A stretch of 37,320 nucleotides of DNA from IMG/VR virus record IMGVR_UViG_2617270964_000016, positions 1 through 37,320 of that record; one strand, given 5' to 3'. A model generated the notes under the pieces. That model saw only the letters and a program-made list of their open reading frames with translations. It was not told where the DNA came from and made no database searches. Positions within the stretch are counted from its first letter, which is position 1, and each line of letters opens with the position of its first letter. The stretch is from a virus. Its lineage: Duplodnaviria; Heunggongvirae; Uroviricota; Caudoviricetes. Of this stretch, positions 1 through 36,401 are shown piece by piece. A program made the translations under genes and the position numbers.

Positions 1-474
1 ATGTACAGTCCGGTACAAATAGCCAATAAATTCATAACGTTGGGAAACCAACATCATAATCCTCTGACCCACATGCAACTGCAGAAGCTTACTTATATTG
101 CCCATGGTTACTATTTAGCATTAACAGGTAAGCCTTTGCTCAATGAATGTGTCTCCGCGTGGAAGTACGGTCCAGTTATTCCTGGAATGTACGATGCTTT
201 CAAAGACTATGGGAATAAACCTGTTACGAATGTAGCAGTAGCTCCTTTTGGTGGCATCGTTACTATGGATCCGCAAGCAGAGAGCATTATCGGGGCTGTT
301 TATAAGTTTTACGGCTCGAAAAATGGAATTGAGTTATCAACTCTAACTCATATGCCAGGTACGCCTTGGTCACAAGCTTATAATGGTATTGGCTCGTCAA
401 TCATCTCAAATGATGCGATCAAGGCTTATTATCATGATTTATTGAATAACCGACAGCAATGTCAGGGCCTCTGA
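1..474 (+). CDS. Panacea-domain (DUF4065, GepA/SocA/PanA-like) phage-associated protein, putative antitoxin
   Basis: ATG at window base 1. Protein carries the Panacea-like signature LQKLTYIAHGYYLALTGKPLL...AWKYGPVIPGMYDAFKDYG. Region is AT-rich compared with the phage backbone. Confidence 0.6.
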   Translation: MYSPVQIANKFITLGNQHHNPLTHMQLQKLTYIAHGYYLALTGKPLLNECVSAWKYGPVIPGMYDAFKDYGNKPVTNVAVAPFGGIVTMDPQAESIIGAVYKFYGSKNGIELSTLTHMPGTPWSQAYNGIGSSIISNDAIKAYYHDLLNNRQQCQGL

Positions 475-495
475 AAAGTAATATTCAGGGATGAC

Positions 496-1044
496 ATGTC
501 TCACAATTCAGATATTTATAAACTTATCGGAGCGGCCGCAGGTGTTGAAAATGGTCGCTCTGAAGCATCCTTAAACTCTACTGACAGTCAAGAACAGGTT
601 TTTGAATCTGCATTTGAGCCGTCTAATCATGAGAGCGACGATGATTCTTCTTCAGAAAATAAAGCTATTCTGGAGGCAGAAGAGTTTGGTTCTAATACTG
701 GTGCATTGCATGAGTTTATGCAGCAGAACAGAATGGACAGTCTTCAAGCTCAGCTTGATATGCTCAAATCACAAGTACGGGATAAGATAGCTGACGCAAC
801 TGGTAAAGAAATAGACAATGAGCTTCGGACAAAAATGGCCTCATTCACGGTTTGGTTTATGTCGTGTTGGTGCTTATTCGTTGTCGCAATGTTTACATCG
901 TTTCTTATTGCACATGAAGGAAAGCCTCCAGTTGAAGCGATCGTTGCATTACTAGGTACAAGTACAATTAGTATTGTTGGTTTGGTTGGTTTCGTTGTTA
1001 GTGGATTGTTCAAATCAAGAAAAGATAGTGATAAAGAAAAATAA
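496..1044 (+). CDS. Uncharacterised membrane protein: acidic N-terminal region plus C-terminal 2-TM hairpin; candidate toxin/effector partner of the Panacea protein
   Basis: ATG 496 with AGGGA Shine-Dalgarno at 485-489, 21 nt after the upstream stop. Ser/Asp/Glu-rich N-region, then two hydrophobic helices (FTVWFMSCWCLFVVAMFTSFLIA and IVALLGTSTISIVGLVGFVVSGLF) and a basic tail KSRKDSDKEK. Confidence 0.5.
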   Translation: MSHNSDIYKLIGAAAGVENGRSEASLNSTDSQEQVFESAFEPSNHESDDDSSSENKAILEAEEFGSNTGALHEFMQQNRMDSLQAQLDMLKSQVRDKIADATGKEIDNELRTKMASFTVWFMSCWCLFVVAMFTSFLIAHEGKPPVEAIVALLGTSTISIVGLVGFVVSGLFKSRKDSDKEK

Positions 1045-1062
1045 CCCGTACATATACGGGTT
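1043..1062. terminator. Hairpin between convergent genes (8-bp perfect stem AACCCGTA/TACGGGTT, 4-nt loop); T-tract on the minus-strand side
   Basis: Seen directly: aacccgta-cata-tacgggtt. On the minus strand the stem is followed by ATTTTTCTTTAT. Sits between the stop of the 496-1044 ORF and the stop of the 1078-1350 ORF. Confidence 0.5.
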
Positions 1063-1077
1063 ATCCATAGTTTTAGT

Positions 1078-1350
1078 TTAGTTATATTTTTGTTTTTCCG
1101 TTCTGACTTTTTCCCACTCAGCTCGCCCTTCTTCCCGTCTTTTGTCAATATATTCCGCAAGATCCTGAATGTTGATGCAGCGTTTTGCTTTTTGTGATGT
1201 ACCGATGCGATATGTAGGTACAGGCAACTTACAAGCGTTTGCTTTTGCTTCTGCTGTGGCTGGACTCATACCAAAGTATTTTTGACTAACTGCTGAGAGT
1301 TCAATGTTAGGGGTATTGAATTCAGCCATCAGTAAAAACAAGGTGTTCAT
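1078..1350 (-). CDS. PrtN-family small DNA-binding protein (possible excisionase-like regulator)
   Basis: ORF-track ORF 1078-1377. Preferred start is the ATG at 1350 (MNTLFLLMAEF...), preceded by GGAG. Motif recalled for PrtN-like proteins (...QDLAEYIDKRREE...). Last gene of the leftward operon. Confidence 0.45.
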   Translation of the reverse strand: MNTLFLLMAEFNTPNIELSAVSQKYFGMSPATAEAKANACKLPVPTYRIGTSQKAKRCINIQDLAEYIDKRREEGRAEWEKVRTEKQKYN

Positions 1351-1386
1351 AATTTTCTCCATCAAAACCGGCTGCACCCGGGAAAA

Positions 1387-1959
1387 TCATAATTCTGTGC
1401 TGGTGGCAGGAATTAATTTCTGCCAGATAGCGGAAACATATTTTGCCTGATGACGGGCATCGGCCAGGGCGTTGTGCCGTTCGCCATCGAAAGGCATGTC
1501 CATTTTGGGGTCGAATCCGATGGAACGCCCAAGCGTAACGATCGTGCGTACATCGTGGTCATTCCAGTATGCCCACGGGCAGATTTGTCCTGCTCGCTCA
1601 TAAGCTCCACGTAAAATTACGTTGTCGAAGGTGGCCCCGTTACCCCAGACTTTTAAATATTTCGTATTGGCTGCGTGCCGGTTAATGAAATGATTTAGTT
1701 CTGAGAGGGCATCGCTGATCGACAAAGTATCATCAATACAGATTGCAGCTCGTGCTTCAGGGCTTTGTTTCAACCACCACAGGATGGTATCGCCGTCAGG
1801 TGTAGCTCCTTGCCCCATAGCACTTTCCAGGCTAACAACCGTATAGAATTCTTGTCCGATGTCTCCGGTTTCTGGAGTGAAGAACACCGCGCCAATGGAA
1901 ACGATCGGTGCATCCTTATTTTTCCCCATCGTCTCAAGGTCGATCATTAAGTTGTTCAT
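1387..1959 (-). CDS. DnaQ-like 3'-5' exonuclease (phage-type)
   Basis: N-terminus MIDLETMG... with acidic exonuclease motifs. ATG at 1959 preceded by AGGAGG (the track's GTG at 1962 is less likely). Confidence 0.6.
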   Translation of the reverse strand: MNNLMIDLETMGKNKDAPIVSIGAVFFTPETGDIGQEFYTVVSLESAMGQGATPDGDTILWWLKQSPEARAAICIDDTLSISDALSELNHFINRHAANTKYLKVWGNGATFDNVILRGAYERAGQICPWAYWNDHDVRTIVTLGRSIGFDPKMDMPFDGERHNALADARHQAKYVSAIWQKLIPATSTEL

Positions 1960-34908: not shown

Positions 34909-35541
34909 ATGCATCGTATAGACACAAAAACCGCGCAGAAGGATAAGTTCGGCGCGGGTAAGAACGGTTTTACCCGTGGTAACCCCCAGACCGGCACGCC
35001 AGCCACCGATCTGGATGATGACTACTTTGACATGTTGCAGGAGGAACTTTGCAGCGTGGTGGAGGCATCCGGTGCCAGCCTGGAGAAGGGGCGGCATGAC
35101 CAGCTGCTTACAGCGCTTCGTGCGCTGCTGTTAAGCCGCAAGAATCCGTTTGGTGATATCAAATCGGATGGCACGGTGAAAACGGCTCTCGAAAACCTTG
35201 ATTTGGGAGAGTTGGCCTTGGCAGGGGTAATGACAGGCCTTTTTGATACCAATGGCTATCTGAAACTCCCAGCAATTATTGATGGCAAGCGAAAAATTTT
35301 GATATTTCAATGGATGTCCATTTCAGCCAGTGCCACACCATCTTATTACAATTTACCTATCGCATGGCCAACCAGAGGGCTACATGCATTTGCTGTTGCT
35401 CAAACGGGGATTGATCAGTCAACCACTGCCTCTGCATTTATTGAAACTTCCTTGGTTAATCAACAAGTTTTTGTTAAGTGTATTAACTCTGCTGGGGCAT
35501 TACAATCCCGTGGTGTTAGTTTATTTATGATTGGTATGTGA
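34909..35541 (+). CDS. Tail fibre protein (conserved N-terminal baseplate-attachment domain, AT-rich variable C-terminus)
   Basis: N-terminus MHRIDTKTAQKDKFGAGKNGFTRGNPQTGTPATDLDDDYFDMLQEEL... typical of Mu/e14-type fibres. GC content drops sharply from about 35270. Confidence 0.65.
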   Translation: MHRIDTKTAQKDKFGAGKNGFTRGNPQTGTPATDLDDDYFDMLQEELCSVVEASGASLEKGRHDQLLTALRALLLSRKNPFGDIKSDGTVKTALENLDLGELALAGVMTGLFDTNGYLKLPAIIDGKRKILIFQWMSISASATPSYYNLPIAWPTRGLHAFAVAQTGIDQSTTASAFIETSLVNQQVFVKCINSAGALQSRGVSLFMIGM

Positions 35542-35549
35542 GAACAAAA

Positions 35550-35942
35550 ATGGATATTTCCTATAAATTCGCTAATGGCGTATTTTACCCCAGCGATATT
35601 GAATATAAATCGATTCCAGAGAGTGCGATTGATGTTACCTATGAAGAATATGCTAAAGCCATGAGACGTCCGACAGGTTATAATTTTACGGTGGACAAAG
35701 AAGGTATAGTAACGCTGATTGAACATGTAATTTCAGAAGAAGAGTGGAAACTGGACATAGAGGCGCAACTTGCATTATTACGACAGAGGGCTGATAACGA
35801 AATAGGATGGCGGCAATATGCAGTTGAAAGAGGTAAAGCGACGGAAGAAGAAGTAGTTGCCTTAATTAAATGGCAGGATTACAAGTTAGAGTTAATGCGA
35901 GTAGATACATCAAACCCAGTATTGCCTACCATCCCTGAATAA
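35550..35942 (+). CDS. Tail fibre assembly chaperone (Tfa)
   Basis: ATG 35550 (MDISYKFANGVFYPS...). C-terminal ...VVALIKWQDYKLELMRVDTSNPVLP... resembles the Tfa C-terminal signature. Follows the fibre gene. Confidence 0.6.
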   Translation: MDISYKFANGVFYPSDIEYKSIPESAIDVTYEEYAKAMRRPTGYNFTVDKEGIVTLIEHVISEEEWKLDIEAQLALLRQRADNEIGWRQYAVERGKATEEEVVALIKWQDYKLELMRVDTSNPVLPTIPE

Positions 35943-35950
35943 GATTATTC

Positions 35951-35978
35951 CCCTCTATCGCGCAATAACGATAGAGGG
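35951..35978. terminator. Hairpin between convergent genes (10-bp perfect stem CCCTCTATCG/CGATAGAGGG, 8-nt loop)
   Basis: Seen directly, 9 nt after the Tfa stop and 6 nt before the stop of the convergent minus-strand ORF. Confidence 0.45.
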
Positions 35979-35983
35979 ATTTA

Positions 35984-36391
35984 TCATCTCATTCTCTTGA
36001 TAATAAAACCAAGTAATATGACAAATTGAACCAGAGAGCACAGGATTGAGAAATGGAGATACCTATAGTCAGATGCAGGGCTGACGAAGAAGTGAGGCAC
36101 TGCAAATATGAAGCATGAGACGCCCAGCAACAAGCCTATACATTTTATACTGCTTCTGACAAAAATAAATGAAATTGTTGATACCAGAGCAAGAAGTAAA
36201 TAAATCCATGGCAAGTAAATATAAGGCATAGATTTTACTGTTTCCACATATAAAGAGCTTGCCTTATTCGGTGTGAATGAGAACCCCCATTGGTTTTCAA
36301 CACTTCCTTCCTGCACGACCCATGCTGGAGTGCTACTACCAACCCTAAGCAATTCATTGAATGTGTCCAATCTTACTTTTAAGTAAGACAA
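35984..36391 (-). pseudogene. AT-rich membrane-protein gene, probably the 3' remnant of a gene truncated by the adjacent IS insertion (possible O-antigen-modification/lysogenic-conversion gene)
   Basis: 135-codon ORF in AT-rich DNA with C-terminal TM helices. The only in-frame start is a TTG at 36389-36391, and the frame stays open upstream into the IS terminus with no credible ATG/Shine-Dalgarno. Confidence 0.35.
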
Positions 36392-36401
36392 TGGGTTATT
36401 C

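Follow-up and report, generated by a model that had tools for sequence, protein, structure and literature searches.

The temperate, serotype-converting Shigella flexneri phage SfV (NC_003444) carries, in this order, genes for lambdoid control, lysis, an HNH endonuclease, terminase, an HK97-type head and a Mu-type contractile tail, a mosaic architecture reportedly published with the SfV genome study in 2002. The DNA analysed here, a stretch of 37,320 nucleotides of the IMG/VR virus record IMGVR_UViG_2617270964_000016 (hereafter the window), has the same gene order and belongs to the same lineage, which comprises SfV, SfI, SfII and SfIV together with the K-12 remnants e14 and CPS-53 (KpLE1). It very probably represents the greater part of a temperate, SfV-like myovirus prophage of Escherichia coli, built from exchangeable modules and containing four AT-rich slots for swappable cassettes. 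This type of prophage is already known and ordinary, and holds nothing that would surprise a phage specialist. Its mildly new points are restricted to an unnamed family of GtrC-like proteins, the linkage of this family to a tail fibre tip and a tail fibre assembly protein (Tfa) in a phage whose baseplate differs, and two small orphan open reading frames (ORFs).

Kinship with SfV, e14, CPS-53 and lambdoid siphoviruses

When phage records were searched by megablast with the window, SfV was the best match, followed by SfI, SfII, SfIV and the induced E. coli phages vB_EcoM-720R4, 689R6 and SKA5. A single high-scoring segment pair of 16,972 bp links window positions 18239-35210, from the small terminase subunit gene (terS) as far as the portion of the tail fibre gene that encodes the N-terminus, to SfV positions 1-16972 at 98.0% identity. 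Positions 7570-15670, which run from the repressor gene cI to the late antiterminator gene Q and the terminator after it, match SfV 25589-33703 at 97.0% over 8,116 bp, and positions 4968-7164 match SfV orf29-32 at 96.7% and CPS-53 yfdS-yfdP at 97%. The stretches without an SfV match are 1-4967, 7165-7569, 15671-16441, 17361-17825 and 35211-36401. In place of int-xis-orf28 of SfV, window positions 1-4967 contain the PanAT toxin-antitoxin genes, a PrtN-type xis and genes for an exonuclease, a DUF551 protein and an Ea22-like protein. Between Q and the lysis genes, SfV has orf47, a methylase gene and a lambda-family holin gene, whereas the window has an ORF of 59 amino acids (aa) and a LydA-type holin gene. 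The window also contains an additional island of 465 bp between Rz1 and the HNH gene, and its fibre tip and Tfa are not those of SfV. Finally, SfV carries gtrA and gtrB, which are absent from the window, where the putative type-specific transferase is of another family and truncated.

An earlier note on this DNA, made from the sequence alone, had proposed SfV, e14 and CPS-53 as comparators, a choice borne out by the 98% identity to SfV and by e14 and CPS-53 fragments at 92-97%. The e14 matches cover cI-cro-ymfL (92.6%), part of the large terminase subunit gene terL (96.4%) and gp47-gp48 with the fibre N-terminus (97.1%), 4.6 kb of the window in all. Those of CPS-53 cover yfdS-yfdP (97.2%), yfdN-yfdM (97.2%) and the fibre N-terminus, together 3.1 kb at 95-97%. 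Both e14 and CPS-53 are heavily deleted remnants, whereas the window keeps all structural genes; CPS-53 retains a gtrABC-type cluster, yfdG-yfdH-yfdI. The same note had called the mosaic known but relatively uncommon, of which only the first part holds: the type is known from SfV, but the baseplate block is present at an identity of at least 95% in 1,078 of 5,426 complete E. coli genomes (about 20%), the collection in which all genome counts below were made. The window as a whole was found in none of these genomes.

The prophage is composed of a lambdoid early and regulatory region, about 97% identical to that of true lambda-type siphoviruses, followed by a lysis cassette, an HNH/terminase module with an HK97-family head, and a Mu-type contractile tail, the junction between early region and lysis cassette being the tR'-like terminator after Q. 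The siphoviruses phiSTEC1575-Stx2k (Glaedevirus) and mEp460 largely share the early region from window position 1 (or 1088) to 15670, at 96-98% where aligned, PanAT being present in the Stx2k phage. Homology to SfV and to both siphoviruses stops at 15670, just past the terminator at 15642-15663. Beyond it, phiSTEC1575-Stx2k and mEp460 have lambda-type lysis and head genes and a non-contractile tail, with stx2 in the slot between Q and the holin gene; phiSTEC1575-Stx2k continues with lambda-type W, D, E, U, G, T, H, L, J and Lom, whereas the window continues with a contractile-tail module. Because an early region at 96-98% identity is joined elsewhere to lambda-type virion genes, these phages provide direct evidence of one control module combined with two virion types.

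Prophage ends and integrity

The first base of the window is that of the start codon of its first gene, panA, and the prophage end that the earlier note had placed at 36401 is exact, as the insertion sequence (IS) ISEc48 starts at 36402. In three relatives that share the left end (L006, L016 and L019), the left junction of the prophage abuts a fragment of dusA about 300 bp before panA, and the integrase gene is located at the far right end, beside a dinI-like gene. With int at the far right end and xis at the left, the whole length of the integrated prophage separates the two genes, and a cargo slot lies between attP and xis.

The alternative that has to be taken most seriously, although we consider it doubtful, is that the prophage is in decay and no longer inducible, a remnant of the same kind as e14 or CPS-53. 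Many of its E. coli relatives are remnants, ISEc48 truncates the last gene at the right end, and the window contains no integrase gene, no attachment (att) site and no tRNA; a tRNA scan of the window returned none, hence there is no tRNA-linked att site within it. However, from cI to tfa no regulatory, lysis, packaging, head or tail ORF is shortened or has internal stops, all of them are colinear with those of inducible SfV, and the IS sits in cargo and not in a phage function. A temperate SfV-like prophage is thus the preferred reading.

Four AT-rich islands and their boundaries

The GC content of the prophage (1-36401) is 0.512, and 0.524 without four islands that had been recognized in the earlier note and that were confirmed on computation, with values from 0.330 to 0.414; uniform GC content was not found. 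The tail module has a GC content of 0.56 and the early region one near 0.49-0.52. The islands, with their rank among all same-length stretches of the prophage, are:

1-1065, island 1: GC 0.405, lowest 1.8%; right edge refined to 1088
15537-16128, island 2: GC 0.414, lowest 6.7%
17280-17830, island 3: GC 0.330, lowest 0.01%; refined to 17361-17825
35270-36400, island 4: GC 0.391, lowest 0.01%; refined to 35211-36401

Islands 3 and 4 are the absolute GC minima for their size and island 2 is the least extreme. At the island edges, breakpoints are found with respect to SfV, e14, CPS-53 and further relatives, and islands 2, 3 and 4 fall within, or almost coincide with, stretches unmatched by SfV. 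The right edge of island 1 is set by 720R4 and mEp460, whose matches begin at 1088/1089, and low GC continues past it through xis to about 1460. The first 76 bases of island 3 as originally drawn are the 3' end of Rz1, and island 4 begins inside the fibre gene. In island 2, positions 15537-15670, from the end of Q to the tR'-like terminator, are conserved with SfV, and the part foreign to SfV is restricted to 15671-16128, plus the holin gene up to 16441. Other AT-rich segments escaped the earlier note: the cI-cro cassette (7570-8650, GC 0.422), which matches SfV and e14 and not SfII or 720R4 and is a fifth AT-rich exchangeable unit, and two milder segments at 5296-5971 and 6255-6802 (about 0.43).

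The codon-usage comparison that the note had suggested gave the same picture. GC content at third codon positions (GC3) is 0.24-0.40 in the island ORFs and 0.51 in the mean gene; the bias is therefore synonymous and not merely intergenic. This bears on the possibility, which we regard as improbable, that low GC reflects functional constraint (AT-rich promoters, terminators, intergenic DNA and membrane-protein codons) and not foreign origin. Several island proteins are indeed membrane proteins, the conserved cI-cro cassette is equally AT-rich, and 15537-15670 is both conserved with SfV and home to the terminator after Q. Apart from the synonymous bias of the island ORFs, constraint does not account for the holin, also a membrane protein, whose gene has a GC content of 0.487, for the soluble PanA, Tfa and 82-aa proteins, whose genes are just as AT-rich, or for the presence and absence of the islands at exact breakpoints in relatives. 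As a full explanation, constraint is thus largely refuted by GC3 and the presence/absence polymorphism, and it holds for the first 134 bp of island 2. Two observations count against regarding the islands simply as acquired cargo, i.e., these 134 bp are conserved regulatory DNA, and islands 2 and 4 hold essential phage genes (holin, fibre tip and Tfa), which makes them module swaps and not pure accessory DNA. The claim that the islands consist of accessory DNA hence stands in so far as the slots hold differing cargo, but has to be amended for islands 2 and 4, which are cassette replacements that include the holin, fibre tip and Tfa genes.

Slot occupants, distribution and independence

The four slots are the standard variable sites of the family, i.e., from att/int to xis, from Q to the holin gene, from Rz1 to the HNH gene, and from the fibre tip to the prophage end. 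Between int and xis, mEp460 has another plus-strand gene pair. The Q-to-holin slot is occupied by orf47 and a DNA methylase gene in SfV and 720R4, by two reverse-strand genes in SfII and VTB96816v, and by tRNAs and stx2 in the Stx2k phage. The Rz1-to-HNH slot is empty (104 bp) in SfV; in C41 a GrlR-family gene is found there, in GF131 a pair of genes on the reverse strand, and in SfII an ORF together with IS911. After tfa, SfV carries gtrV-gtrB-gtrA, and SfII the acyltransferase gene oac, an IS and gtrII-gtrB-gtrA. Since the slots hold different cassettes in different relatives, separate recombination events are the most likely explanation.

The distributions of the islands are also very different. 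Island 1 is present in 79 of the 5,426 genomes; the unique part of island 2 is complete in 15 and partially matched in 807; island 3 occurs in one, at 100% identity; and island 4 in one at a coverage of at least 80%, with five partial matches. As the distributions are so different and uncorrelated in the relatives examined, independent origins are supported. That the islands are not independent, having arrived jointly or representing an ancestral state lost in relatives, is very unlikely, since their similar GC content (about 0.32-0.41) and the silence of pairwise breakpoints on the direction of change are outweighed by frequencies that differ up to 79-fold (79, 15, 1 and 1 genomes), by relatives that have one island without others (island 3 without island 2 in VTB96816v, island 2 without island 3 in GF131 and C41, and island 4 without islands 2 and 3 in H51), and by slots that are filled with unrelated alternative cassettes rather than empty. 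Judged by composition and breakpoints, the islands most likely derive from an AT-richer gene pool by separate recombination events. The earlier claim of at least four independent acquisitions is thereby upheld by the slot alternatives and the uncorrelated distributions, except as regards direction, since gain here as opposed to loss elsewhere is unreadable from pairwise breakpoints and can be presumed at most.

Island 4: a fibre tip, Tfa and a probable GtrC-like gene

At the right end of the prophage the following features are found:

34909-35541, + strand: tail fibre gene, with a conserved N-terminal part of 100 aa (PHROG fibre families match aa 1-105) and a C-terminal, receptor-binding tip swapped from 35211
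35538-35942, + strand: gene for Tfa (PF02413, 2.6e-13), GC 0.393
35951-35978: convergent terminator
35984-36401, - strand: 3' remnant (the last ~135 of 438 codons) of a putative GtrC-like polytopic membrane glycosyltransferase gene, cut by ISEc48
36402-37320, - strand: ISEc48, an IS3-family element, incomplete as the window ends within it; ISEc48 copies of many genomes match it at 99.6-100% identity

Homology to SfV, SfII, 720R4, e14 and CPS-53 ends in all cases at 35210, inside the fibre gene, the GC content of which is 0.546 before this breakpoint and 0.414 after it. The slot that follows the tail fibre genes, where SfV-like phages have a gtrA-gtrB-gtr(type) cluster, contains the truncated GtrC-like gene, which is of a non-GtrV family. 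An intact protein of 438 aa was rebuilt from H51, in which the same gene is interrupted elsewhere by IS2 and the flanking matches overlap by 5 bp.

The reverse-strand gene probably encodes a GtrC-like glycosyltransferase (GT), an assignment suggested by domain fusion, gene neighbourhood and predicted fold, and by position. Fusion to a GtrB-like GT2 domain (PF00535) is seen in more than 20 homologues, and an E. coli homologue of 45% identity, located in an O-antigen cluster beside ugd and his, directly follows a GT2 gene and a gene for a small EamA-like membrane protein. The AlphaFold model has a pLDDT of 93.9. The gene matches gtrV of SfV in strand and position, and GtrV, GtrII and YfdI, the type-specific components of three-component GtrA/GtrB/GtrC systems, are likewise polytopic proteins of about 440 aa encoded by AT-rich genes on the reverse strand right after the tail fibre assembly gene. 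Several results pull the other way. The top eight Foldseek matches of the model are all GT-C enzymes, with probabilities of 0.99-1.0, and yet are marginal (E of 8e-3 to 6e-2, TM score of 0.38-0.44), the best E of the GT-C fold match being 8e-3 and its TM score 0.33-0.47; a profile search against PDB sequences gave chance-level matches only; the rebuilt protein shows no similarity to SfV GtrV by BLASTP; and it belongs to no Pfam family, that of GtrII included, which is equally true of bona fide GtrV. Furthermore, GtrC-type systems have gtrA and gtrB, whereas neither is found beside the GtrC-like gene in the window or in H51. In GT-C enzymes, a conserved acidic residue is expected in the first periplasmic loop; D38, which is invariant in 34 homologues, may be a candidate for it.

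The GtrC-like protein would be expected to modify the O antigen. Because ISEc48 has removed the first ~300 codons, the gene is dead here, and because it is an IS-disrupted pseudogene, no serotype conversion is expected from it.

In the only two close copies available, the gene has been struck by two IS elements at two sites, i.e., by ISEc48 in the window (36402-37320) and by IS2 in strain 2017.17.03CC (L002, 22303-23531). Of the intact form at 100% identity, no more than part of the gene is seen, where a contig ends. A Logan contig (SRR29213558; L011, 617-3126) contains an intact GtrC-like gene, a tfa gene and a fibre tip in the same gene order, at 78%, 55% and 49% amino acid identity, respectively, and its baseplate genes (Phage_Wedge1, Sheath_initiator and E217_GP41-like) are unrelated to those of the window.

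Island 1: a PanAT toxin-antitoxin pair

Island 1 contains two genes of the same strand, 21 bp apart, which form a two-gene unit:

1-474, + strand: panA, Panacea-domain antitoxin (PF13274, 5.9e-18), identical at 157/157 residues to the EFF60 protein annotated WP_000287252.1
496-1044, + strand: panT, membrane pore-forming toxin (phrog_13343 over its full length, 3.8e-113), identical at 180/182 residues to WP_000019187.1, GC3 0.30

The validated PanAT pair of E. coli STEC O31 consists of WP_000287252.1 and the toxin WP_000019185.1 (Kurata et al., 2022; PMC8832971). Expression of PanT leads to membrane depolarisation and large SYTOX-permeable pores, and PanA antitoxins associate in complexes with the respective cognate toxins, which they neutralise by direct binding (PMC8832971). 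The window PanA is identical to that of the validated pair, and PanT agrees with its toxin in length and architecture, being a protein of 182 aa with a charged N-terminus and two C-terminal transmembrane helices. As PanA is identical to the validated antitoxin, island 1 is already characterised. By analogy with this pair, PanT would form pores in the inner membrane and PanA would neutralise it by direct binding. A point of caution is that the window PanT was compared with WP_000019187.1, from which it differs by two substitutions, while the toxin tested was WP_000019185.1. Searches of PanT against Pfam, NCBIfam and PDB sequences gave nothing above threshold.

Islands 2 and 3: small ORFs

The cargo of islands 2 and 3 is limited to one small ORF each:

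15738-15917, + strand: ORF of 59 aa with a CxxC...CxxC zinc ribbon, island 2 cargo, GC 0.372; annotated WP_023154804.1 in relatives
17514-17762, + strand: orphan ORF of 82 aa, island 3 cargo (phrog_16949, function unknown, 1.4e-18), GC 0.357, GC3 0.241
17788-17814: strong hairpin with a 12-bp stem, found by terminator scan and read as a terminator on both strands, which closes island 3

The 59-aa ORF is flanked by hairpin terminators at 15642-15663 and 15933-15954. Its family matches (Zn_ribbon_10, the Lar-like phrog_6422 and TIGR04104) are all below threshold and were not used for function. The 82-aa ORF matches only three clusters among 5.8 billion proteins, and neither ORF gave anything above threshold against Pfam, NCBIfam or PDB sequences. 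The gap between Rz1 and the HNH gene, of 104 bp in SfV, measures 465 bp in the window, with a GC content of 0.316. Self-contained extra genes inserted between neighbouring phage genes are known as morons. To judge by its layout, island 3 fits this pattern except for an unconvincing promoter prediction: the promoter-like site before the 82-aa ORF (17467-17494) matches 9/12 positions, and such sites are not enriched over shuffled sequence. Both small ORFs may be expressed in the lysogen.

Early region and regulation

The features of the early region, ordered from left to right, are as follows:

1078-1377, - strand: excisionase gene of the PrtN family (PF11112, 3.9e-23; phrog_1300, excisionase, 6.2e-40)
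1387-7164, - strand: early-left operon with genes for a 3'-5' exonuclease, a DUF551 protein, an Ea22-like protein, four unknown ORFs, a YfdR-like HD hydrolase, YfdQ (DUF2303) and YfdP (Pfam)
7666-8340, - strand: cI repressor gene with an S24 autopeptidase domain (PF00717, 1.5e-26), 97% identical to the SfV cI region, GC 0.447
8431-8631, + strand: cro, by position and length as in SfV; weak HTH_3 and YdaS matches
8663-9226, + strand: CII/CP76-like regulator gene (ymfL; PF06892, 8.5e-15)
9583-9771, + strand: isrK-like RNA (9583-9659; Rfam RF01394, 61.2 bits) and C4 antisense RNA (9684-9771; RF01695, 80.7 bits), both above gathering scores
10285-14770, + strand: replication/nin-like region with genes for an HTH_36/DnaD-like replication protein, PerC/YfdN, a Dam methylase, a LexA DNA-binding-domain protein, RusA, a KilA-N protein and a DUF968 protein (Pfam), 97% identical to SfV
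14784-15536, + strand: late antiterminator gene Q (PF03589, 3.8e-54)
15642-15663, + strand: tR'-like terminator, from the terminator scan and the breakpoints; in the SfV record a terminator is annotated at the corresponding position

Positions 1-4967 are not in SfV and are partly common to lambdoid siphoviruses. The divergent cI/cro pair, the CII-like regulator, the Q-dependent late operon and the R-Rz-Rz1 cassette are those of a lambdoid phage. The lambdoid control proposed in the earlier note is therefore sustained by the S24 cI, cro, the CII/CP76-like protein and Q (PF03589), but does not extend to N: no N family match was obtained, and leftward of cI no ORF of at least 50 aa is present in 7165-7665. 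The 405 bp between yfdP and cI (7165-7569, GC 0.531), which have no SfV match and no credible ORF and are common to the Stx2k phage, occupy the place where lambdoid phages have N and nutL, and nothing was identified there.

A further layer of regulation, overlooked before together with the AT-rich cI-cro cassette, is provided by the isrK-like and C4 RNAs. They constitute an RNA immunity element of the P1/P4 type, here part of a lambdoid early-right operon that occurs beside the protein repressor cI. The two RNAs lie back to back inside the 'Ash' ORF (9223-10059, + strand), which has a Phage_ASH domain by Pfam and corresponds to SfV orf37, so that ORF and RNAs share the same DNA. In a PADLOC search of the island ORFs and four early genes, no defence-system match was obtained apart from a weak one (1.2e-6, one short stretch) between the KilA-N protein (12964-13773) and PDC-S22, which was judged uninformative and probably reflects merely a common domain.

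Lysis, packaging and head

The lysis cassette and the packaging and head genes comprise the following, the gene content of the prophage being confirmed by Pfam at gathering cut-offs and by a nucleotide identity of 96-98% to SfV:

16129-16446, + strand: holin gene of the LydA / superfamily III type (PF16083, 8.2e-22; phrog_785)
16433-16909, + strand: lambda R-type endolysin gene (lambda lysozyme 1AM7, 1.5e-93)
16893-17273, + strand: Rz (DUF2570 match)
17104-17436, + strand: Rz1, in an overlapping frame, with an LLTGC lipobox
17830-20530, + strand: genes for HNH endonuclease, P27-family terS and TerL, in that order (PF01844; PF05119; PF03354 and PF20441)
20630-23739, + strand: genes for HK97-family portal, S78 prohead protease and major capsid protein, SfV allele (PF04860, 3.4e-98; PF04586, 5.2e-41; PF05065, 7.1e-65)
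23818-25586, + strand: genes for head-tail connector, head closure protein, neck protein and tail terminator (PF05135, PF05521, PF23840)

The R/Rz region is 88% identical to that of SfV. Lysis of the lambda type, as previously proposed, applies to the endolysin and Rz/Rz1, but not to the holin, which is a PF16083 protein and not of the lambda S type; across 15671-16441 no SfV match was found. The proposed combination of HNH endonuclease and terminase with an HK97-type head was recovered in full by Pfam, from the HNH protein, P27 terS and TerL to the HK97-family portal, S78 protease and capsid. The portal, protease and capsid genes are contiguous, with no separate scaffold gene, and the PF05065 domain of the capsid protein begins at residue 125 and is thus preceded by a delta-like region at the N-terminus. 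In PDB (phmmer), the capsid protein matched the RcGTA capsid, named HK97 family, at 4e-14 and other HK97-family capsids, and no match to the HK97 gp5 structure was obtained at E of 1e-3 or below. Since gp5 itself is unmatched, the term 'HK97-type' is valid for this head at family level only.

Positions 20470-23816, with the portal, protease and capsid genes, are matched by SfV, and SfII, 720R4 and the H51 prophage have no nucleotide match there; terL and the neck and tail genes of these three are common with the window at 95-98%. Because the head genes are unmatched between flanks at 95-98%, there are two exchangeable alleles of the head module, delimited by breakpoints where terL ends and where the adaptor gene starts. 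This picture of an SfV allele and an SfI/SfII/SfIV allele agrees with that of PMC3851460.

Contractile tail

The tail genes form one block that precedes the fibre gene:

25595-34905, + strand: genes for gp38-like protein, sheath, tube, assembly chaperone, tape measure, gpN, gpP/gp44, gp45, gp46, gp47 and gp48 (Pfam and Mu structures)

Their Pfam families (PF10948, PF04984, PF10618, PF10109, PF10145, PF07157, PF21683/PF22255/PF21929, PF06890, PF07409, PF04865 and PF10076) follow the Mu order gp38-L-M-gp41-gp42-N-P-Q-V-W-R-fibre-Tfa over 25595-35942. Matches to Mu structures were obtained for the sheath (9KHY/9KI1, 7.1e-81), the gp44 hub (1WRU/9KI1, 4.9e-51) and the gp45 spike (9KI1, 2.2e-14). 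The Mu-type tail that had been anticipated is thus confirmed, with sheath, tube and baseplate in Mu gene order and matches to the Mu families. A run of six T (GGTTTTTTCC) at 27852-27857 lies shortly ahead of the stop codon of the ORF for the tail assembly chaperone (27601-27870), and an ORF in another frame (27837-28019) overlaps the chaperone ORF and leads to the tape measure gene. From their arrangement, the T run and the overlapping ORF look like the conserved programmed frameshift of tail chaperones.

Concluding remarks

Beyond annotation the significance of this prophage is small, its architecture having long been published and about one fifth of complete E. coli genomes carrying its tail module. 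For annotation, the left-end island can carry that of a validated PanAT system, and the GtrC-like family at the right end has neither a Pfam model nor a name despite its clear GT2 fusions. The window is also a clean worked example of modular phage evolution, in which GC minima lie within tens of bases of recombination breakpoints. We give only a small chance to a more ambitious reading, according to which the unnamed, Pfam-less GT-C-like family would belong to a fibre tip-Tfa-GtrC-like cassette that moves between phages with unrelated baseplates, and, as a separate matter, the 82-aa ORF could be a new factor expressed in the lysogen. If this were true, the cassette would couple the receptor recognised by the phage to the enzyme that modifies that receptor on the lysogen.

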